A stretch of DNA of 64,000 bases from Escherichia coli (GCF_003790525.1 NZ_CP033635.1); one strand, 5' to 3'. Shown: positions 6,111-44,120, counted from the first letter of the stretch. Numbers and translations are program-made. The notes: generated by a model from the letters alone, not told the origin.

Positions 6111-8006
<1,896 letters not shown>

Positions 8007-8034: not shown

Positions 8035-8067
8035 AGCCCGGTATACAAGTGTATACCGGGCTTTTTT
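8035..8067. terminator. bidirectional rho-independent terminator between parE and the TonB-dependent receptor gene
   Basis: Perfect hairpin AGCCCGGTATAC-AAGT-GTATACCGGGCT followed by TTTTTT; A-rich on the other side. Confidence 0.75.
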
Positions 8068-8069
8068 GA

Positions 8070-10211
8070 TCAAAATTCCATTTTCACCGTGAATTGCACT
8101 TCACGAGGATCGCCAATCTGGTTGCCCAGATTATTTGTGGCGATGGAAGAGGTGTAATACGTTTTATCAAACAGGTTTTTGACGTTTAATTGCAGTGTGA
8201 CCGGATACTGCAATTTCATTTTGTATGCGGCGAAGGCATCGGCAACGAAATAGCCTGGCAGATAATAGTCAGCCCCATTGGTTGCCGAACGACGGCTTAC
8301 GCCATGTCCACCACCGCCAAACGTCAGTGTGTTATTGCCAGGCATGTTATGAATGTCATAAGTCAGGAATAGCGAACCGGTATGACGAGGAACATTCGGC
8401 AATGGTTTCCCTGCATAATCAGGATCCTCCAGAACCTTAGCATCGGTATAGCCGTAGCTGGCAATGATATTAATGTTTTCAGTTAATGCTCCCGCAAGGT
8501 CGACTTCTACCCCTCTTGAACGAACACGGCCTGCCGTTTTGGCAATGGTTTCATCACCAACACTTTCGGTATACAACACATTACGTTTATGGATATCAAA
8601 CAGCGCAATATCTGCGGTGATACCATCGAATAGCTCGAATTTTGCCCCGACTTCGTAAGCATTAGATGATTCCGGTGGAAGATCGCCAATGTAGCTGGCA
8701 ATTGACGACTGCGGCATAAATGTTTGCGAATAATTGGCAAATAAGGATACCGATGGCGTCAGTTTGTAGACTAACCCCAGTTTGGGAGTCCATTGTTCAT
8801 CGCGGCTGTCAGTATTGACATTAAAAGGACGGCCTTTACCCGCATACTGCGTGTAATACTGATAGCGGATCCCGGCGACGGCAATCCAGTTATCGGTCAG
8901 ATAGAGTGCGTCCTGTGCATACGCTGAGTAGCTCTCCTGTTTGATCGTCTGATCACTGTCCGACGCCGAAACCGTTGTACATTTGCTGGTATTACCATAA
9001 ACAGGGTTGTAGATATTGAAATCTTTAGCTTTTTTACAGCGAATCATATCTGTACGCAGAAGATCATAATATTCATATGACACCCCACCCAGAATCTCAT
9101 TATAGAATCCGGCAATATCAACATTCCCTTGCAGATCCGCACGAGTAGCATGCATACGCTGGGTAGATCCCTGAGTTGCATCAACACGCCGTGTCAGTGT
9201 TCCTGTCGTTGCATCATACGCGGTAACACGCGCCTGATTATCGCTGTATTTATCCTGGCTGTAGCTGTAATCAAAGCGCGCTGTCCACTGGCTATTGAGA
9301 TGATATTCTGCGTTGAGTTGCGCCAGATCGGACTTTCCATCTGTAATATTAAACGGTTCGTCAAAACGTATTTTTCGATCAACGTTTACGGGCTGTTTCG
9401 TCGTAAGGTCGAAAATCGTTCCACGATCGAACGGAGTTTTATAGTCCCGATGGGAATAGAGCATAGTTACTGTTGCATTATCACCAAACCAGGTGAGTGA
9501 CGGGGCAATAAATGTACTGCGCTCTTTACCGAAGTTTCGCCAGTAATCTTCATCCTGCACTTCCCCGGTAAGGCGATACGCCAGCTGAGTGCCTTCAATG
9601 GGACCTGTGATATCAAGTTGCCCAGTGCCGCCACCAAAACTGGAGGAGGTGGCTGAAACCGAACCATGGAATGTTTTTTCCGGGCGCTTGGTCACGACGT
9701 TAATCAGTCCACCAGGATCGAGAATGCCATACAGCGTGGAGGCCGGACCTTTTAGCACTTCCACACGTTCTGTGGCGGCGTTGAAACTGCGAGGAAGTAC
9801 AGTTCGCAGGCCGTTGGTCATGATGGAGCCATCCCGGTTAGCACCAAACCCACGACGTACAAAGGCGTCCTGAGTTCCGCCTAATGTATTGGTCTGTACC
9901 ACGTTACTGACGTTATAAAGCGCTTCATCCAGCGTCGTCGCATTCTGATTTTCCAGAACCTGATCGCTAACAGTATTGACCACCTGCGGGATATCCAGCA
10001 TCGGCATATCGGTTAATGTCGCCGTGGAAGTGCTCAGAGGTTGATAACCATCGGTTGCCTCAGTTGCGGTATTTGCATCTGCTGTAACAGTGATTGTTTC
10101 GCCATCTTTGGTCGTTACAGAGTCTGTTGCATGAATCATCGGTGCCGCAAAAAGCAGTGAAAAGAGCGCCCGACCTTTGAGTCCTGAGAATGAAGGTGTG
10201 AACATAGCCAT
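8070..10211 (-). CDS. TonB-dependent siderophore receptor (Fit-like outer membrane receptor)
   Basis: 713 aa ORF; signal peptide, TonB-box-like ETITVTA near N-terminus, C-terminal ...TVKMEF with terminal Phe typical of beta-barrel OMPs; organisation resembles the E. coli Fit system as I recall it. Confidence 0.85.
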   Translation of the reverse strand: MAMFTPSFSGLKGRALFSLLFAAPMIHATDSVTTKDGETITVTADANTATEATDGYQPLSTSTATLTDMPMLDIPQVVNTVSDQVLENQNATTLDEALYNVSNVVQTNTLGGTQDAFVRRGFGANRDGSIMTNGLRTVLPRSFNAATERVEVLKGPASTLYGILDPGGLINVVTKRPEKTFHGSVSATSSSFGGGTGQLDITGPIEGTQLAYRLTGEVQDEDYWRNFGKERSTFIAPSLTWFGDNATVTMLYSHRDYKTPFDRGTIFDLTTKQPVNVDRKIRFDEPFNITDGKSDLAQLNAEYHLNSQWTARFDYSYSQDKYSDNQARVTAYDATTGTLTRRVDATQGSTQRMHATRADLQGNVDIAGFYNEILGGVSYEYYDLLRTDMIRCKKAKDFNIYNPVYGNTSKCTTVSASDSDQTIKQESYSAYAQDALYLTDNWIAVAGIRYQYYTQYAGKGRPFNVNTDSRDEQWTPKLGLVYKLTPSVSLFANYSQTFMPQSSIASYIGDLPPESSNAYEVGAKFELFDGITADIALFDIHKRNVLYTESVGDETIAKTAGRVRSRGVEVDLAGALTENINIIASYGYTDAKVLEDPDYAGKPLPNVPRHTGSLFLTYDIHNMPGNNTLTFGGGGHGVSRRSATNGADYYLPGYFVADAFAAYKMKLQYPVTLQLNVKNLFDKTYYTSSIATNNLGNQIGDPREVQFTVKMEF

Positions 10212-10308
10212 TTAGTCTGTTATCCCAAAAACTCGCGGATTGTCGCGAGTGAAAATTGTTTCTTATTGCTCACTAAGCACTATCCGTTTGTTATTTCGCC
10301 ATCGGATA

Positions 10309-10330
10309 TGTAATTGAGAATCATTCAATC
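10309..10330. promoter_or_regulatory. candidate Fur box in divergent receptor/ABC operon control region
   Basis: TAATTGAGAATCATTCAATC resembles Fur consensus GATAATGATAATCATTATC; a second AATGAGAAAT-like element lies about 25 bp downstream; sits in an AT-rich 373 bp intergenic. Confidence 0.45.
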
Positions 10331-10584
10331 ACGCAGTAATGTAGTAGTAAATGAGAAATAACAAAAAATTGCTACATGTGTTTTTATGAAAAGTTTATAC
10401 AATTTGATTGCTTTTAATTTATTGATATTTAATGGTTTTGTTTTTATGTGCAAAAATATTTTACCTGTTATTTACCTTGTTTTTGTGTGGCTTTTAACTG
10501 CTTGACTACTACATTTTGTGGCGTCAAACTCTCAAAGGAGAATGAGTTTTATTTTTGTTTGTCTTTGATTAAGTTGGCGTACAC

Positions 10585-11394
10585 GTGGCACATAACGCAA
10601 AAGGGCAGGGGCTGATCCTCGACAATGTTTCTGCCGGGTATCACAAGAAAATCATTGTTGATGGTGTTTCTTTCTCCGTTCCCACAGAAAAAATGACCGT
10701 TCTGGTTGGGGCAAACGGCTGTGGAAAGTCGACGCTGCTCAGCACCATTGCTCGTATCTTGCAACCCATGGGCGGTTCGATATTGCTGGATGGTAAAGCG
10801 ATTCACGAGCAACCAACGAAAGCGTTATCCCGTAGACTTGGGATCTTGCCGCAGTCGCCATTATTGCCGGAGGGCTTAACCGTTTATGAACTGGTGTCGC
10901 GTGGGCGTTTTCCCTGGCAGAATTTCATTCGTCAATGGAGCGACGCCGATGAGCTGGCGGTAGAAGAGGCCCTGAAATTAACGGGTACGCAGGAGTTTGC
11001 ACATTTACCTGTTGAAAAACTCTCTGGTGGGCAGCGCCAGCGTTGCTGGATTGCGATGGTGTTGGCGCAAAAGACGCCTTATATCCTGCTGGATGAACCC
11101 ACAACCTGGCTTGATTTACGTTATCAGGTTGAAATTCTTGAGTTATTACATGATTTAACGCGTCATCACGGGCGTACAGTCGTCGTGGTGTTGCATGATC
11201 TGAATTTTGCCGTCAATTATGGCGATACGTTGATATTTTTACGCCAGGGGAAAGTGGTGCGTGTGTTGAATGAGGGGGAGCATTGCACGCCTGAGCTGGT
11301 AAAAGCGGTCTTTGACGTTGATGTTCACGCATCAATAAATCCTCTGACGGGAAAGCCGTTCTTCATGCCGTTTCGTGGTGTAGAAAAAGTATGA
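10585..11394 (+). CDS. iron-siderophore ABC transporter ATP-binding protein
   Basis: 269 aa from GTG at 10585 (exact start uncertain); Walker A GANGCGKST, ABC signature LSGGQRQR, Walker B ILLDEPTTWLD. Confidence 0.85.
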   Translation: MAHNAKGQGLILDNVSAGYHKKIIVDGVSFSVPTEKMTVLVGANGCGKSTLLSTIARILQPMGGSILLDGKAIHEQPTKALSRRLGILPQSPLLPEGLTVYELVSRGRFPWQNFIRQWSDADELAVEEALKLTGTQEFAHLPVEKLSGGQRQRCWIAMVLAQKTPYILLDEPTTWLDLRYQVEILELLHDLTRHHGRTVVVVLHDLNFAVNYGDTLIFLRQGKVVRVLNEGEHCTPELVKAVFDVDVHASINPLTGKPFFMPFRGVEKV

Positions 11395-12374
11395 TGCGCA
11401 CAGGGCTGGTTACTGTAATTTTCCTCGCCTTACTGCTGGTGGGATGCGTGGTATATCCAGGGATTGGTGCCCGATTTATTGCACCACAAACGGTGTTGCA
11501 GGCATTTCTTCATTTTGATCCGCAAAACTTCGATCACAACGTAATTGTAAGACTCCGTTTGCCGCGTTTAGCGGCAGCATTGCTTACCGGTGCTTCTCTT
11601 GGAGTTGCTGGTGCTTTGTTGCAGGCTGTCATTCGTAACCCATTGGGGGAGCCACATATTTTAGGCTTAAATGCCGGAGCCGCTCTTGCTGTCGTTGCTG
11701 CCAGTGCGCTTGGGCTGGCCTTTCCGGTTGGACGCCCACTGCTGGCATCTACGGGCGGCGCGTTATTGTTCCTGTTGATATTGCTGCTTTCCTCCGCAGG
11801 GCGTTCAGGGTTAACGCCAATGAAAGTTACTTTATGCGGCGTGGCGCTATCGGCGTTCGTGTCCTCAATAACGGCTGCAATCCTGATTCTTGACGAACAA
11901 ACACTGCTGGCGATGCGGACATGGCTAGCAGGTGATTTAGCGGGGCAGGATTGGGCGACGCTGGGTACGTCCGCCTGGTTTTCTCTGGGGGGATTTGTGT
12001 TAGCCCTTTACCTTGCACCCTCCCTTAACATGTTGGCACTGGGCGATCGCATGGCGCAGGGGCTGGGCGTCTCTGTATTCCGCACGCGAACATTCACCCT
12101 GCTTGCGATCGCGTTGCTCTGTGGCGCAGCCGTATCGATTGCTGGCCCCATTGGTTTTGTCGGCCTGCTAGTACCGCAGATTGTCCGGCGTCTGGTATCA
12201 GCGGATCTGCGCGTTCTGCTCCCTCTTTCAGCTTGTGTCGGCGCACTTTTGTTATTACTGGCAGATATTATTGCCCGTACGCTTTTCACACCCCATGAGT
12301 TAGCGACCGGTGTCATGACGGCGTTAGTTGGTGCGCCTGTTTTTGTCATTATGGCGACGAGGATGTTCAAATGA
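11391..12374 (+). CDS. iron-siderophore ABC transporter permease (FecCD family)
   Basis: 327 aa polytopic hydrophobic ORF; 4 nt start/stop overlap with upstream ATPase gene. Confidence 0.85.
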   Translation: MMRTGLVTVIFLALLLVGCVVYPGIGARFIAPQTVLQAFLHFDPQNFDHNVIVRLRLPRLAAALLTGASLGVAGALLQAVIRNPLGEPHILGLNAGAALAVVAASALGLAFPVGRPLLASTGGALLFLLILLLSSAGRSGLTPMKVTLCGVALSAFVSSITAAILILDEQTLLAMRTWLAGDLAGQDWATLGTSAWFSLGGFVLALYLAPSLNMLALGDRMAQGLGVSVFRTRTFTLLAIALLCGAAVSIAGPIGFVGLLVPQIVRRLVSADLRVLLPLSACVGALLLLLADIIARTLFTPHELATGVMTALVGAPVFVIMATRMFK

Positions 12375-13420
12375 GTCGGATAATGAACGTCGGGCTACGC
12401 CCACTACGTGTTGGTAAGTTTTCGACACTGGTACGCCCTAAAAATCTGCTGTTGCTTGGTGGGCTGTTCCTGCTTGCGGTTGGAATACTGATATTCGGTC
12501 TGATGCAGGGTTCTTTCTCTGTTCCGGCATCGGAAGTAGGACGAGCGTTGTTTGCTCCAGAAAACGTAAGCACAGACGCACGTTATATTGTGCAGGATAT
12601 TCGCTTGCCGAGAGTCATCATGGCATTGCTATGCGGGGCCATGTTAGGTATGGCAGGGGCCGCAATGCAATCCATTGCACGTAACGGCCTTGCCGATCCT
12701 GGTTTAATCGGCGTCAAAGAAGGATGTAGCGTGGCTGTGCTGTGGCTGATTTTCCAGTTTCCAATGCTGGGAATGTTCTGGCGTCCAGTGGCTGGTCTTG
12801 CTGGTGGCCTGTTGGTGGCTTTAATCGTGATTTTTTGTGCGCGCGATATTTCCCGCCCGCGATTTGTTCTGATTGGTATTGGTGTTTCCTGGTTTTTCGC
12901 CGCCGGTATCGGTGTATTTATGACCACTGCAGATGTTCGAGATGTACAAACTGCATTGATGTGGTTATCGGGAAGCCTGCATGCAGCTAACTGGATGTTA
13001 GTCGCTATTTCAGCCTGTTGGATGTTGCCAGCCGCTCTTTTATTGCTGTTCACCGCCAGGACGGCGGATATCGCTCTGCTTGGTCATCAGGTTGCAACCG
13101 GGTTAGGGGTGAATAGTTCTCGTCTGGCGTTGTTACGTGTCGCTGCACCCATAATCCTGACAGCCGTCTGCGTTTCGTGTGTTGGTAACATCGGTTTTGT
13201 CGGATTGATAGCACCCCATATATCACGTTTTATTCTACGTGGCGGGCAGACGACATTACTGCTGGGGAGCGCGGTATCGGGGGCGTTGTTAGTTATTCTG
13301 GCGGATAGCATTGGTCGTTTGGCTTTTTTGCCTTTGCAACTGCCTGCCGGAATCATTATCTCACTGATTGGTGGACCATTTTTTTTGCTACTGCTCTGGC
13401 AGCGCAGGAACAGTTTTTAA
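12371..13420 (+). CDS. iron-siderophore ABC transporter permease (FecCD family), second subunit
   Basis: 349 aa hydrophobic ORF paralogous to the preceding permease; 4 nt overlap with it. Confidence 0.85.
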   Translation: MSRIMNVGLRPLRVGKFSTLVRPKNLLLLGGLFLLAVGILIFGLMQGSFSVPASEVGRALFAPENVSTDARYIVQDIRLPRVIMALLCGAMLGMAGAAMQSIARNGLADPGLIGVKEGCSVAVLWLIFQFPMLGMFWRPVAGLAGGLLVALIVIFCARDISRPRFVLIGIGVSWFFAAGIGVFMTTADVRDVQTALMWLSGSLHAANWMLVAISACWMLPAALLLLFTARTADIALLGHQVATGLGVNSSRLALLRVAAPIILTAVCVSCVGNIGFVGLIAPHISRFILRGGQTTLLLGSAVSGALLVILADSIGRLAFLPLQLPAGIIISLIGGPFFLLLLWQRRNSF

Positions 13421-13430
13421 CGGGAGTTAT

Positions 13431-14378
13431 ATGCGTTTATTTTTTTCTCTGCTGATACTGTTGTCATTTTTTTCCCGTGCAACAGAACCTGTTCAGGTAT
13501 TTACTGATGATTTAGGGCGCAAAGTCACTGTTCCTGCTCATCCAAAGAGAATTGTCTCTTTACACGATCTTGATATCACTATTCCTCTGATTGAGCTCGG
13601 TGTACCTCCTGTCGCCAGCCACGGGCGAACTCGGCCTGACGGTAGCCATTTCATTCGATCTGGCGCGTTATTGACAGGTGTCGACTTTGATAATTCATCG
13701 ATCGCCTTTATTGGTACCGCTGATATTGATATTGAAGCGATTGTGGCGGCAAAGCCTGACCTGATCATCACAGAACCGACCCGTAATACGCCCATTGAAC
13801 AACTTGAAAAAATTGCGCCCACGGTGAGCATTGATCATCTCAAAGGGGGCGCGCCAGAAATCTATCGCAAGCTGGCAGAACTTACAGGAACGCAGTCGCA
13901 GCTGGCGATACTTGAACGCCGCTATCAGGCACAAATCAATGCGCTGAAGGCGACGCTGGACAGCCAAAAAATAACGGTATCGGTGATTCAGGCAAACCAG
14001 GGAAAAATTAATGTGATGCATAGCTATCATTCGCTGGGGCGGGTATTACGCGATGCTGGTTTTCGTTTTCCGCCGCTGATTGAGAGCATTCCTGAAGGTG
14101 GGCGAATGGATGTGAGCGCGGAGCGTTTACCTGAACTGGATGCCGATTTTGTTTTTGCAACCTGGCGCGGTGACACCGGTGGTAAACCTCAGGATGAGCT
14201 GGCAGCAATGGAAAAAGTCATGCCGGGATGGTGTCAGTTTCTGACTGCCTGTCGTTCCGGGCGTTATGTGCTGATTTCTCGTGAAGAGGCGATTTCTAAC
14301 TCCTTTGCATCTCTGGGGCTGATGGCTGCGCAGATACAATCACAAATTGCAGGGCGACCTCTACCGGAGGATAAATGA
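13431..14378 (+). CDS. periplasmic siderophore-binding protein (ABC substrate-binding, class III)
   Basis: ORF 13368-14378 trimmed to ATG at 13431 preceded by GGGAG; signal peptide MRLFFSLLILLSFFSRA. Confidence 0.8.
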   Translation: MRLFFSLLILLSFFSRATEPVQVFTDDLGRKVTVPAHPKRIVSLHDLDITIPLIELGVPPVASHGRTRPDGSHFIRSGALLTGVDFDNSSIAFIGTADIDIEAIVAAKPDLIITEPTRNTPIEQLEKIAPTVSIDHLKGGAPEIYRKLAELTGTQSQLAILERRYQAQINALKATLDSQKITVSVIQANQGKINVMHSYHSLGRVLRDAGFRFPPLIESIPEGGRMDVSAERLPELDADFVFATWRGDTGGKPQDELAAMEKVMPGWCQFLTACRSGRYVLISREEAISNSFASLGLMAAQIQSQIAGRPLPEDK

Positions 14379-15262
14379 TCCAGAAAGATAAAGCGCGGGT
14401 TGATATTTTTGGTGAGCGTTTTCGCACTCGCGCGAGTCAGTTAACGCCTGGGTTAAGAGTTGTCGCCAGCTACATTAATGAGCATCGTGAAGTGGTACTC
14501 GAGCAAACGGCGATGGAAATTGCGGCCACGTTGAACACTTCCGATGCCACAGTTATCAGGGCTATACAGGCCCTGGGGTTTGCCGGGCTGCGTGATCTGA
14601 AACGCACTCTGGAACAGTGGCTTGGTCCAGCCCTTAGTTCCAGCGAAAAGATGTCTACGACGGTGAGTAACTTGACGAGCGATGTTAACACCGCAATCGA
14701 CTTTGTTCTTGAAGGGCATTTGTATACCTGTAATGTCCTGTCAGAGCCTGAAAACCGCCACGCGCTTGCGCAAGCTGTAGCGTTGTTGGTGCAGGCACGG
14801 CAAGTCGCTATTTTTGGCATTGGCGCTTCGGGTATCCTGGCGGACTATACCGCACGACTATTCAACCGCATAGGTTTGCCTGCCACGGCACTAAACCGTA
14901 CGGGTATTGGCCTTGCCGAGCAACTGATCGCGCTTCAACGTGGCGATGTTCTGATCATGATGGCGCAAAAATCTGCGCACCGGGAAGGGCTGACAACGCT
15001 TCGTGAGGCGAGGCGGCTGGGGATCCCTGTTATTTTGCTGACAAACGCGCTGGATTCACGTTTTAGCAAAGACGCCAGTATCGTGATTCATGTTCCGCGC
15101 GGGGATGAAAAAGGGAAAACGCCGCTACATGGTACGGTATTGTTGTGTCTGGAAATGATTGTCTGGTCGGTAGCTTCCGCAGTGCCGCAGCGTGCGGTTA
15201 AAACCATTAAGCGAATTAACGATTTCCATCGAGGACTGAAAACGGGAAGAAAGAATGGCTAA
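14375..15262 (+). CDS. RpiR/MurR family transcriptional regulator (HTH plus SIS domain)
   Basis: 295 aa; N-terminal HTH region and C-terminal SIS-like sugar-phosphate binding region (IFGIGASG...); 4 nt overlap with binding-protein gene. Confidence 0.8.
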   Translation: MIQKDKARVDIFGERFRTRASQLTPGLRVVASYINEHREVVLEQTAMEIAATLNTSDATVIRAIQALGFAGLRDLKRTLEQWLGPALSSSEKMSTTVSNLTSDVNTAIDFVLEGHLYTCNVLSEPENRHALAQAVALLVQARQVAIFGIGASGILADYTARLFNRIGLPATALNRTGIGLAEQLIALQRGDVLIMMAQKSAHREGLTTLREARRLGIPVILLTNALDSRFSKDASIVIHVPRGDEKGKTPLHGTVLLCLEMIVWSVASAVPQRAVKTIKRINDFHRGLKTGRKNG

Positions 15263-15306
15263 TCTGGGCTGAGACCGGTAGCAACACCGGCCTCTTTTCA
15301 GGAATG

Positions 15307-15621
15307 TTAAATCCCCGGTTGCAGGATGCGGATATTCATCTCCAGCACATCGCCTTTTACGGCCTCGCTGTACGCTTTCATGTGCGGGGTCTGCAAGTGC
15401 GCTTCAAGATGCGCGATGCTTTCCCACTGCTCAATCATCACGATAGAATCCGGTGCCATAGACTGGAAACTCACGCCAGCAGCGCAATCCACCATTGGCG
15501 CATAGCCGTGGCAACCTTCTTCTTTCAGTACGGTTGGAACGATTTTAGCAAACTGATCCAACACTGCCTGACGGTGATGTTGACCAGGACGAGTACGGAT
15601 TTCTGCGATTACTGTAATCAT
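15307..15621 (-). CDS. ygiN: quinol monooxygenase YgiN
   Basis: 104 aa ORF MITVIAEIRTRPGQHHRQAVLDQF... recognised as YgiN (ABM domain). Confidence 0.92.
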   Translation of the reverse strand: MITVIAEIRTRPGQHHRQAVLDQFAKIVPTVLKEEGCHGYAPMVDCAAGVSFQSMAPDSIVMIEQWESIAHLEAHLQTPHMKAYSEAVKGDVLEMNIRILQPGI

Positions 15622-16233: not shown

Positions 16234-16342
16234 TTTTTAACCTTAAGGTGAGACGTTTGCCGACTATAGTACGTCACAGAGCGGTACGGTGAAATTAGCA
16301 AAATGTGCAAAGTCTTTTGCGAATTTAGCAAAAGTCTTACCC

Positions 16343-32469: not shown

Positions 32470-32791
32470 TATGCTCTTACTCCTGGTGGCTTGTGTGTAT
32501 ACCAATTTACATAATTCACTAGACCAAAAACAGAGAGATGCATCACGCTTGCAGAGAAAGGTAAAAGTACGAAACAGAACAACAAGGCGTTATTTATATC
32601 TGTATCAATGAGTTATATGAATAAAATGAAAGGAAAGTTTTTTAGAGGTCAGTTTTTGGGATAATTGCCGCTAATCTAAGATATCTGATGATAGTCGATT
32701 TATTAGACCAATTGAAAAGAGAGCGTGTACCAGTGGAGGGCGGAAGGCAGAGCCGGCGTTATTTTTCCCGCCAGCTCTGGACTAATGAAGG

Positions 32792-33541
32792 TTAACGAGC
32801 GAAGAAAAAGTCATCAAAATCGCTGATGGAAGCGTCTTGTTTGAAGATTTTGATCAGTTCATTTTTGCTGTTTTCCAGATGTCTCCAGGATGCTTCCCTG
32901 GCGAGCTCTGAATCTTTCTGTTGTAGCGCAAGGAAAATAGCCCGGTGATCTTCCAGCCATTGCAGACGCAAATGCTTTTCATGCAGGTACTTGTAGTTAA
33001 GTTTCTTCCAGCGGGGGTTTTCTGTACGAACTGCCCGCCATAATTCAGCAGCTTGTTTGATGAGTACCCGATTTTGCGTCGCTTCGGCAATAATGCTATG
33101 AAATCGGTGATCCAGGTCTTCAAATTTATCACTTTCCGCAGCGATAGCGTTTTCCTGCAATCTAATGATTTTCTTTAACTCTTGTAACTCGTTAAAGCTA
33201 ATCTGGCTGGCTGCAAAACCAGTAATATTGCTCTCAATCACCTGACGCGCCTGCAACAGTTCAAACGGGCCAATTTCTGAATAGGGCATTAATGATTTCT
33301 GGTTGAGCTTATCGGTGGAGTCGACAAAGAAAATCCCTGACCCTTGCTTCACATTCAATACGCCTTTCAGTTCCAGCATAATGATGGCTTCACGAATGGT
33401 AGTTCGGCTGGTATTAAACCGCTCGCTCAGTTCACGTTCTGAAGGTAAGCGTTCTCCGGCCTTAAATACGCCTGAATACAGCAGCTCTTCAATCTGTAGA
33501 CCAATATCGTAATAGCGGCGCTTTGTAATAACCTGTTCCAT
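32792..33541 (-). CDS. GntR family transcriptional regulator (FadR/FCD subfamily)
   Basis: 249 aa; N-terminal winged HTH (LPSERELSERFNTSRTTIREAIIMLELKGVL) plus C-terminal FCD-like helical domain. Confidence 0.85.
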   Translation of the reverse strand: MEQVITKRRYYDIGLQIEELLYSGVFKAGERLPSERELSERFNTSRTTIREAIIMLELKGVLNVKQGSGIFFVDSTDKLNQKSLMPYSEIGPFELLQARQVIESNITGFAASQISFNELQELKKIIRLQENAIAAESDKFEDLDHRFHSIIAEATQNRVLIKQAAELWRAVRTENPRWKKLNYKYLHEKHLRLQWLEDHRAIFLALQQKDSELAREASWRHLENSKNELIKIFKQDASISDFDDFFFAR

Positions 33542-42953: not shown

Positions 42954-43688
42954 GTGGGTAATAATTTAATGCAGACGGACCTTTCCGTCTGGGGTATGTA
43001 TCAGCACGCCGATATTGTCGTTAAGTGCGTGATGATTGGGCTTATTTTGGCCTCCGTAGTCACCTGGGCAATCTTCTTCAGTAAGAGCGTAGAGTTCTTC
43101 AATCAGAAGCGTCGCCTTAAGCGCGAGCAGCAACTGCTGGCTGAAGCGCGTTCCTTAAACCAGGCCAACGATATCGCCGCTGATTTTGGTAGCAAAAGCT
43201 TAAGCCTGCATTTGCTCAATGAAGCGCAGAATGAGCTGGAACTGTCAGAAGGCAGCGACGATAACGAAGGTATTAAAGAACGTACCAGCTTCCGTCTGGA
43301 GCGTCGGGTCGCCGCAGTAGGTCGTCAAATGGGCCGCGGTAACGGCTATCTGGCAACCATCGGCGCGATTTCGCCGTTCGTTGGTCTGTTTGGTACGGTC
43401 TGGGGCATCATGAACAGCTTTATTGGTATCGCGCAAACGCAGACCACTAACCTGGCAGTCGTTGCGCCGGGTATCGCAGAAGCTCTGTTAGCAACGGCAA
43501 TCGGCCTCGTGGCAGCGATTCCGGCGGTCGTTATCTATAACGTATTTGCACGCCAGATTGGCGGCTTTAAAGCGATGCTGGGTGATGTTGCAGCGCAGGT
43601 ATTGTTGCTGCAAAGCCGTGACCTGGATCTGGAAGCCAGCGCCGCTGCGCATCCGGTTCGTGTCGCACAAAAATTACGCGCAGGATAA
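42954..43688 (+). CDS. exbB: TonB-system energiser ExbB
   Basis: 244 aa MotA/TolQ/ExbB family membrane protein. Confidence 0.95.
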   Translation: MGNNLMQTDLSVWGMYQHADIVVKCVMIGLILASVVTWAIFFSKSVEFFNQKRRLKREQQLLAEARSLNQANDIAADFGSKSLSLHLLNEAQNELELSEGSDDNEGIKERTSFRLERRVAAVGRQMGRGNGYLATIGAISPFVGLFGTVWGIMNSFIGIAQTQTTNLAVVAPGIAEALLATAIGLVAAIPAVVIYNVFARQIGGFKAMLGDVAAQVLLLQSRDLDLEASAAAHPVRVAQKLRAG

Positions 43689-43694
43689 TGTCCG

Positions 43695-44120
43695 ATGGCA
43701 ATGCATCTTAACGAAAACCTCGACGATAACGGCGAAATGCATGATATCAACGTGACGCCGTTTATCGACGTGATGTTGGTTCTGCTGATTATCTTTATGG
43801 TGGCGGCACCGTTAGCGACGGTAGATGTGAAGGTGAACTTGCCTGCTTCTACCAGCACGCCGCAGCCGCGCCCGGAAAAACCGGTTTATCTGTCGGTGAA
43901 GGCAGACAACTCGATGTTTATCGGTAACGATCCGGTCACCGATGAAACAATGATTACGGCGTTGAATGCGTTAACCGAAGGCAAGAAAGACACCACCATC
44001 TTCTTCCGAGCGGACAAAACCGTCGATTACGAGACGTTGATGAAGGTAATGGATACGCTGCATCAGGCGGGTTACCTGAAGATAGGTCTGGTTGGCGAAG
44101 AAACTGCCAAAGCGAAATAA
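43695..44120 (+). CDS. exbD: TonB-system energiser ExbD
   Basis: 141 aa ExbD/TolR family ORF. Confidence 0.95.
   Translation: MAMHLNENLDDNGEMHDINVTPFIDVMLVLLIIFMVAAPLATVDVKVNLPASTSTPQPRPEKPVYLSVKADNSMFIGNDPVTDETMITALNALTEGKKDTTIFFRADKTVDYETLMKVMDTLHQAGYLKIGLVGEETAKAK

Follow-up and report, generated by a model that had tools for sequence, protein, structure and literature searches.

What do the six genes between parE and ygiN encode in a 64,000-nucleotide stretch of an Escherichia coli chromosome (GCF_003790525.1, NZ_CP033635.1; "the window" below means this whole stretch), and what controls them? An initial annotation of this DNA had read them as a TonB-dependent receptor gene divergent from an ATP-binding cassette (ABC) siderophore-uptake operon that ends in an RpiR/SIS regulator gene, and had named the Fit iron-uptake system as a match. 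We conclude, with a probability of roughly 0.93, that the locus is chromosomal fit, with fitA divergent from fitBCDE-fitR, and that it serves the TonB-dependent, iron-regulated uptake of a ferric chelate. The fit cluster is an already known and experimentally characterised system, and the result mostly confirms that a published accessory iron-uptake locus had been recognised.

Correspondence with the published fit locus

The identification is carried first by the oligonucleotides published for the fit genes (PMC2593036, Table 2). All 17 of 17 primers mapped to the cluster with zero or one mismatch, in the expected genes and in the expected order; they cover fitA, fitB, fitC, fitD, fitE and fitR (cloning and quantitative PCR (qPCR) primers for fitR) as well as the "fit promoter" pair. 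The fitA qPCR primers fall at 9391-9410 and 9448-9467, and the "fit promoter" primers at 10233-10254 and 10568-10591. Secondly, the fitE product matched Protein Data Bank (PDB) entries 3BE5 and 3BE6 over chain residues 1-297 (E = 1e-194); these entries are cited as E. coli FitE (PMC10553834), and the structure paper is Shi et al. 2009 (Proteins 75:598). The roles stated for the published genes are fitA, a fitB ATPase, the permeases fitC and fitD, a fitE binding protein, and fitR (PMC2593036), and a 2026 genome comparison describes a 7,193-bp "fit operon" region that MG1655 lacks and that extraintestinal and adherent-invasive strains have in common (PMC12928451). The primers, the FitE match and these two papers together verify the Fit identification that had been proposed. 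The window allele is 98.6-98.8% identical in nucleotide sequence to Nissle and other listed genomes, and 100% identical to strain CREC-544. Ouyang and Isaacson, whose 2008 paper lists the primers, are said to have first described the fit locus of E. coli strain i484 in 2006; in gene set, order, orientation and sequence identity, and as an accessory region of some 7.2 kb that K-12 lacks, the window cluster agrees with that locus, and nothing material differs between the two.

Organization of the cluster

The following layout is based on the open reading frame (ORF) list of the window and the RefSeq annotation of the 100%-identical genome, that of strain CREC-544.

6114-8006, plus strand: parE (ORF list, RefSeq)
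8035-8062: strong bidirectional terminator-like hairpin between the convergent genes parE and fitA (12-bp stem with 7 GC pairs, T-runs on both strands)
8070-10211, minus strand: fitA, TonB-dependent siderophore receptor, 713 amino acids (ORF list, TIGR01783 match)
10212-10584: divergent fitA/fitB promoter-operator spacer, 373 bp, AT-rich (GC 0.36)
10585-11394, plus strand: fitB, ABC ATPase with a GTG start (FecE-like best family match)
11391-12374, plus strand: fitC, FecCD-family permease (FecC-like best match)
12383-13420, plus strand: fitD, FecCD-family permease (start of the Prokaryotic Genome Annotation Pipeline (PGAP) and RefSeq; alternative ATG at 12371, longest ORF)
13431-14378, plus strand: fitE, periplasmic siderophore-binding protein, single-hinge, group III type (longest ORF from 13368)
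14375-15262, plus strand: fitR, RpiR/MurR-family repressor (HTH_6 plus SIS)
15275-15290, plus strand: weak terminator-like hairpin 3' of fitR (five-pair stem, then CCTCTTTTCA)
15307-15621, minus strand: ygiN

Both sources bear out the six genes noted earlier between parE and ygiN, and the ORF list contains no ORF of at least 80 amino acids in the parE-fitA or fitR-ygiN gaps. Three start/stop overlaps had been claimed. Two of them, the ATGA overlaps at 11391-11394 and 14375-14378, were confirmed, but the one at 12371-12374 hinges on the choice of start codon, as it exists only when the upstream ATG is taken as the fitD start in place of the PGAP start at 12383. With either start the gaps among fitB, fitC, fitD, fitE and fitR are no longer than 10 nt. 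The single fitBCDE-fitR operon that had been proposed is supported.

The receptor and the importer are of siderophore type

Families were assigned with NCBIfam models and their curated cut-offs, and domains with Pfam. FitA scored 375 bits against TIGR01783 (cut-off 223.5), the model of the TonB-dependent siderophore receptors, a family with a plug, a 22-strand barrel and a TonB box; in FitA the TonB-box-like sequence ETITVTA occupies residues 38-44 of the translated ORF and resembles DTITV, the TonB box of FhuA. FitA has no N-terminal signalling extension. Its scores were 44 bits with the B12 receptor model (BtuB; cut-off 600), 98 bits with the heme model (cut-off 317), 231 bits with FhuA (cut-off 803) and 167 bits with FoxA (cut-off 1300), and its nearest solved structures are FoxA, FetA and FhuA. 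The siderophore-type receptor proposed initially is upheld; clustering of the receptor and binding protein with the cobalamin, heme or another non-siderophore family had been named beforehand as an outcome that would speak against the proposal, and it was not seen.

The genes fitB to fitE encode an ABC siderophore importer of the FecCD type (type II), made up of two permeases, an ATPase and a Peripla_BP_2-type binding protein; the Pfam domains FecCD and Peripla_BP_2 are recorded for the orthologous importer genes. The best family match of FitB was FecE-like (282 bits, under the cut-off of 375) and that of FitC was FecC-like (239 bits, under its cut-off), while FitD matched the C-terminal half of FhuB best (197 bits) and FecD next (187 bits), both under the cut-off. 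The components match the Fec, Fhu, Fep and Btu models strongly, each remaining under its equivalog cut-off. The PDB relatives of FitE are the siderophore binders YfiY, FhuD, SirA, FepB and CeuE, with YfiY and FhuD the nearest. Binding proteins of this class that work with FecCD importers carry chelates, not free ions.

These results bear on whether Fit could import something other than a siderophore, such as heme, cobalamin or free ions (Fe2+, Co2+, Cd2+). The fit operon has been described as related to uptake of Fe2+, Co2+ and Cd2+ (PMC12928451); yet a non-siderophore cargo is very improbable in the face of a receptor that passes the siderophore model and lies far under the B12 and heme receptor cut-offs, a binding protein whose PDB relatives bind siderophores, and published control by Fur (PMC2593036).

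For a ferric chelate as cargo, we envisage that FitA, made under iron starvation, would bind the chelate and that TonB-ExbBD would energise its passage through the outer membrane. FitE would then take up the chelate in the periplasm and deliver it to the FitC/FitD permease, with the FitB ATPase as the source of power. The window also carries exbB and exbD (42954-44120), the TonB-system energisers that FitA would need, about 28 kb away; the RefSeq product name for exbB, "tol-pal system-associated acyl-CoA thioesterase", looks misannotated.

FitR-linked modules in Enterobacterales and the class of cargo

Relatives of FitR were sought in a scan of one genome per species, which gave 125 stretches coding for them; in the 80 loci that it returned, all are from Enterobacterales. 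The loci that were fetched were surveyed by tblastn. The type 1 module (58 loci) is the full set with fitA divergent from fitBCDE-fitR, and occurs in Escherichia, Enterobacter, Kosakonia, Phytobacter, Citrobacter, Klebsiella, Raoultella, Kluyvera and some Erwinia. In the type 2 module (17 loci, from Pantoea, Erwinia, Serratia and Rahnella, with one Tatumella locus), fitR (65-73% identity) is divergent from another receptor gene, whose product is about 35% identical to FitA, and fitBCDE is missing; in the Pantoea ananatis locus the receptor gene is followed by a gene for a ferrichrome/ferrioxamine-type binding protein. In a further variant (locus L003), fitE and fitR are separated by a PepSY_TM gene and two PstS-like genes, and the same extra genes are probably present in L044 and L048, judging from a gap of about 3 kb. 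The extra genes, PepSY_TM with one or two PstS-like (PBP_like_2) genes, span 7007-10004 in L003 and 6010-7946 in L090. Among more distant relatives, the link to a receptor and an ABC importer was retained by P0126 alone (45% identity), whose gene is the last of a receptor-ABC-binding-protein operon with a PstS-like gene among its members; P0123, P0129 and P0132 had contexts that gave no information or lay on short contigs. FitR-type regulators are consistently tied to TonB-dependent uptake genes.

The most likely cargo, which we state as a leaning, would be a hydroxamate-type or mixed xenosiderophore, because the nearest characterised relatives of the FitR-linked uptake genes are hydroxamate systems. 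The nearest families of FitA are FhuA, FoxA and FhuE, and FitE is closest to YfiY and FhuD; the type 2 receptor is FoxA/FhuA-like and is paired with a ferrichrome/ferrioxamine-type binding protein; and some fit modules include a PepSY_TM gene, a family that includes the ferrioxamine reductase FoxB. Several points weigh against a firmer statement. No Fit component reached the NCBIfam equivalog cut-off of any characterised system, FitA lying far under those for FhuA, FoxA, FhuE, Fiu, FecA, BtuB and the heme receptors, and these scores give a lean as to chemical class. The Fit substrate has been described as unknown, with only enterobactin excluded (PMC5907654), and a search of the later literature found no identification of it.

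In one strain, Erwinia sp. E602 (L007, 12773-16697), genes for an MFS_3 exporter, an ATP-grasp protein and a NAD_binding_9 oxidoreductase, flanked by N-acetyltransferase genes, lie 2 kb downstream of fitR. This cluster is absent from the related locus L006, and may serve the biosynthesis of a small chelator.

Regulatory elements in the fitA-fitB spacer

FitR was shown to repress both divergent fit promoters, its own expression included, and the purified protein specifically shifted a fitA-fitB intergenic fragment in gel-shift assays; the "fit promoter" fragment drives both of the lacZ fusions used (PMC2593036). FitR acts independently of Fur, which also represses fit: mutation of fur raised fitA 23-fold, and mutation of both fur and fitR raised it 52-fold. 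The 2008 paper, which calls FitR "a novel regulator" in its title, left the exact FitR and Fur sites open (PMC2593036). Given that FitR is encoded by the last gene of the operon and binds the spacer, the operon is negatively autoregulated. When iron is plentiful, Fur-Fe2+ would repress both divergent promoters of the 373-bp spacer, and FitR would also bind there and keep expression down. The following elements of the spacer are candidates for these sites or lie in the fitA leader.

10232-10249, minus strand: fitA leader hairpin, CUCGCG-ACAAUC-CGCGAG followed by U5 in the mRNA sense (folding test)
10309-10328: 20-mer TGTAATTGAGAATCATTCAA, invariant across 12 genera, Fur-box-like (12/19 for 10310-10328)
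10340-10351, minus strand: candidate FitR operator A, TTTACTACTACA, overlapping the putative fitA -35 element
10502-10513, plus strand: candidate FitR operator B, TTGACTACTACA, overlapping the putative fitB -35 element TTGACT
10538-10556, plus strand: Fur-box-like element GAGAATGAGTTTTATTTTT (13/19, the best match in the spacer), at or just after the putative fitB transcription start

An alignment of the spacer from 12 genera (mean column identity 59%) contained four invariant or nearly invariant blocks: TGTAATTGAGAATCATTCAA at 10309-10328, TGTAGTAGTAAA at 10340-10351, TTGACTACTACA at 10502-10513 and GAGAATGAGTTTTATTTTT at 10538-10556. The fragment shifted by FitR in the published assay contains all four. 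Operators A and B are inverted copies of one motif, 165 bp apart. Each copy overlaps a -35-like hexamer that is followed, 17 nt downstream, by a conserved -10-like element. On the fitA side, TGTAATTGAGAATCATTCAA overlaps the putative -10 element TTGAAT (10328 to 10323, minus strand); on the fitB side the putative -10 element is CAAACT at 10525-10530, and a -10-like CAnnnT occurs 17 nt downstream of operator B in all 12 aligned genera. Transcription is predicted to start near 10316 (minus strand) for fitA and near 10537 (plus strand) for fitB. A position over the -35 hexamer fits a repressor site, and TT(G/T)ACTACTACA, whose core ACTACTACA lies at 10340-10348 and 10505-10513, is a candidate FitR operator.

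The distribution of the motif follows that of fitR. All 58 fitA-fitB spacers and 17 of 17 type 2 receptor-fitR spacers contain the 9-mer core of operator A without a mismatch, and operator B is exact in 57 of the 58 fitA-fitB spacers. The 9-mer ACTACTACA occurs 153 times in the 1.6 Mb of fetched loci, where about 12 occurrences are expected by chance, and 134 of these are in receptor-fitB or receptor-fitR spacers. A further 15 stand beside FitR-linked genes outside these spacers: eight are upstream of fitB in loci with no FitA match, two are upstream of fitR in one further locus, and five are directly upstream of the type 2 binding-protein gene. Four are elsewhere. Both the ACTACTACA motif and the invariant 20-mer TGTAATTGAGAATCATTCAA are retained beside the type 2 class of receptor, which is unrelated to that of type 1, arguing that they travel with FitR and not with FitA. 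A third exact copy, TGTAGTAGT, is found in type 2 loci (L082, at about 7445; also L063, L073, L085 and L086) within the receptor gene, at its 3' end and some 70 nt ahead of the binding-protein gene, and suggests an internal FitR-controlled promoter.

These assignments must be weighed against several observations. The ACTACTACA motif is not palindromic, unlike the typical operators of helix-turn-helix dimers, and its overlap with -35 elements means that it could instead belong to the promoter or be the site of another protein. A consensus promoter scan returned no sigma-70-like site in the spacer; the putative hexamers, which score 8/12 each, were placed by conservation and spacing only. The two blocks that contain GAGAAT (at 10316-10321 and 10538-10543) are putative Fur sites, but no match to the Fur consensus with three or fewer mismatches was present anywhere in the window, and the best matches in the spacer are weak (12/19 and 13/19), so that sequence alone cannot confirm them. 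DNA looping between the motif copies was considered and rejected, as the spacings (164-166, 178 and 184-189 bp) are not in helical phase.

The hairpin of the fitA leader lies about 20-40 nt upstream of the start codon. Its position is kept in 52 distinct leaders of other genera, in which the stem sequence is variable. Position-fixed folding of 30 nt gave a mean of -9.1 kcal/mol, compared with -3.7 for shuffled sequences and -2.7 for other windows of the spacer. RNAalifold detected no structure in the fitA leader, which we attribute to the inability of MAFFT to align stems that lack sequence conservation, and the z-scores for the whole segment were weak (mean -0.7). Roles for the hairpin in attenuation, in mRNA stabilisation or as the target of a small RNA are conceivable. 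Upstream of it in the mRNA sense, the predicted leader contains a conserved box at about 10262-10270, TTATTGCTC (TCATTGCCC in most genera), which may be a Fur-like or small-RNA site.

The SIS domain of FitR has a variant loop

The regulator had been singled out as the unusual feature of the cluster. Its RpiR/SIS type was confirmed, but it had been noticed earlier, as FitR was characterised in 2008 (PMC2593036). FitR has the N-terminal HTH_6 domain (residues 15-81, E = 1.9e-9) and the C-terminal SIS domain (residues 138-247, E = 1.3e-13) that define the RpiR/MurR family. When FitR was aligned with solved SIS proteins, the loop A197-Q-K-S-A-H-R-E204 stood at the position of SQSGRS in the HexR-like 8k3b, SSSGST in Vibrio NanR (4ivn) and SNSGET in 5uqi. 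The phosphosugar-sensing loop S-x-S-G-x-S/T, which we take from the GlmS and NanR structures to be the one that contacts phosphate, is therefore not present in FitR, which has AQKSAH. In 12 orthologues (69-88% identity) the loop reads AQKS(A/P)HRE, and Q198, K199, S200, H202, R203, E204 and G205 are invariant. More distant relatives (30-50% identity), obtained from an exhaustive search of 1.84 billion representative proteins, have AYGxxYxE at the loop, and only E204 and H252 are invariant among them. The first glycine-rich SIS loop, G-I-G-A-S-G, is retained in FitR. With AQKS(A/P)HRE or AYGxxYxE at that position, FitR by its predicted protein sequence is in an SIS clade that lacks the classical Ser/Thr-rich phosphate loop, and the conserved basic residues of its own loop would suit an anionic ligand.

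The initial annotation had hinted that the substrate or inducer of the system might be sugar-derived, which would have FitR sensing a phosphosugar or a related signal through a classical SIS pocket. The SIS domain is bona fide and keeps its G-I-G-A-S-G loop, the conserved K199, H202 and R203 could bind an anion, and PstS-like (phosphate-binding-type) periplasmic proteins are encoded in some fit-like modules. Nevertheless, we regard such sensing as improbable, and the hint found no support: S-x-S-G-x-S/T is replaced both in the orthologues and in the wider clade, no sugar-metabolism gene is conserved beside fit across the genera examined, where the flanking genes vary by genus, and no experiment links sugars to fit.

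Repression of fit would be relieved when this atypical SIS domain binds its ligand, perhaps the imported chelate itself or a compound derived from it. More broadly, FitR may represent an Enterobacterales RpiR/SIS clade that has been re-tooled from phosphosugar sensing to a chelate-type ligand and to the control of TonB-dependent uptake, a tentative idea of which we are more doubtful than persuaded. The traits that may mark this clade are the loop Q-K-S-x-H-R-E, the DNA signature TT(G/T)ACTACTACA with the block TGTAATTGAGAATCATTCAA, and association with at least two unrelated receptor modules.

Distribution and origin of the cluster

In the K-12 derivative C600, parE is directly followed by ygiN after a 47-bp spacer, in agreement with the absence of the cluster from K-12 that had been assumed; the opposite finding, K-12 carrying the same genes at this position, had been named as evidence against the reading. 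The cluster is present in 1,870 of 5,426 complete E. coli genomes (34%), and the remaining genomes match the flanks only. Attribution to extraintestinal E. coli proved too narrow, as these 34% include Nissle and the cluster occurs in Enterobacter and relatives as well.

How the cluster came to lie at this site was considered in two ways. It would be a recently acquired virulence island of extraintestinal E. coli, according to one of them, and such an origin draws on its absence from K-12 and from 66% of the complete genomes, on the complete replacement of the 47-bp K-12 spacer in the cluster-bearing allele, as seen in the junction alignment, and on the link made in the literature to phylogroup B2 and to adherent-invasive and clinical isolates (PMC9409007, PMC5907654), fitA having been used as a marker associated with B2 (PMC9409007). 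However, the ORF list, junction alignment and composition profile revealed no integrase or transposase, tRNA target, direct repeats or deviant composition, the GC content of the cluster being similar to that of the flanks; the earlier statement that the borders lack mobility genes thus stands. The cluster also lies between parE and ygiN in E. whittamii, in a cryptic Escherichia lineage, in several Enterobacter species, and in Silvania and Huaxiibacter, and the Fit proteins are 70-89% identical to those of these genera, in the same range as the flanking YgiN, MdaB and QseC (65-89%). The probiotic strain Nissle also has the cluster. Recent acquisition is therefore unlikely. Occupation of the same site in other genera points to the second origin, and fit is probably an ancestral locus that was lost in K-12-type lineages, not an acquired island.

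Other features of the window

Two other regions of the window were recorded. The mdaB-qseC gap is 109 bp (16234-16342) and lacks ygiZ, which K-12 has there; the corresponding region of Nissle contains an Hcp-family type VI secretion gene, a hypothetical gene and ygiZ. A second cluster, at about 26068-33541 between ygiQ and ftsP, presumably is not at that position on the K-12 map. Its genes are for a GntR/FadR regulator, a mannitol-dehydrogenase-family protein, a Zn-dependent alcohol dehydrogenase, an Ldh-family oxidoreductase and a TRAP transporter, the small permease of which is interrupted by an internal stop. Of the 5,426 complete E. coli genomes, 1,201 have the cluster at full length.

Relation to other systems and significance

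The best-scoring characterised relatives of Fit are Fhu (FhuA with FhuCDB) and FoxA/FoxB, which share with it the receptor subfamily, a single-hinge binding protein and a FecCD-type importer. Fit differs from them in scores far under the equivalog cut-offs, in a permease encoded by two genes in place of the fused FhuB, in its dedicated RpiR-type repressor, and in a FitA that, from the alignment offsets, lacks the N-terminal signalling domain of Pseudomonas aeruginosa FoxA. Fec (FecABCDE with FecIR) is, like Fit, among the few E. coli iron transporters with a regulator of their own, and FecE and FecC gave the best scores for FitB and FitC; Fec, however, is activated by cell-surface signalling through a sigma/anti-sigma pair, whereas Fit has a cytoplasmic HTH-SIS repressor and a receptor without a signalling domain. 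Regulation of siderophore receptor genes by a pathway-specific protein acting atop Fur is also known for PchR, YbtA and AlcR, which respond to the siderophore of their own system; as AraC-type proteins they are not of the FitR family, and they act mainly as activators. Within its own family, FitR shares HTH_6 plus SIS with HexR, MurR and NanR of Vibrio vulnificus, and is a repressor that is presumably ligand-responsive. Its identity to them is about 25%, the Ser/Thr-rich phosphate loop is replaced, its targets are TonB-dependent uptake genes and not genes of sugar catabolism, and its conserved DNA motif has no obvious palindrome.

The fit locus serves as a marker of phylogroup B2 and of adherent-invasive E. 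coli, and an ancestral origin, as opposed to a pathogenicity island, changes how this association with virulence should be read. If FitR has indeed been re-tooled, its SIS domain would sense a siderophore-type ligand, of which we know of no report for any SIS domain. Some 20 years after the system was described, handles on the cargo of Fit and on the ligand of FitR are now provided by the candidate FitR and Fur sites, by residues K199, H202, R203, E204 and H252 of FitR, and by the sister modules in Pantoea, Erwinia and Serratia.

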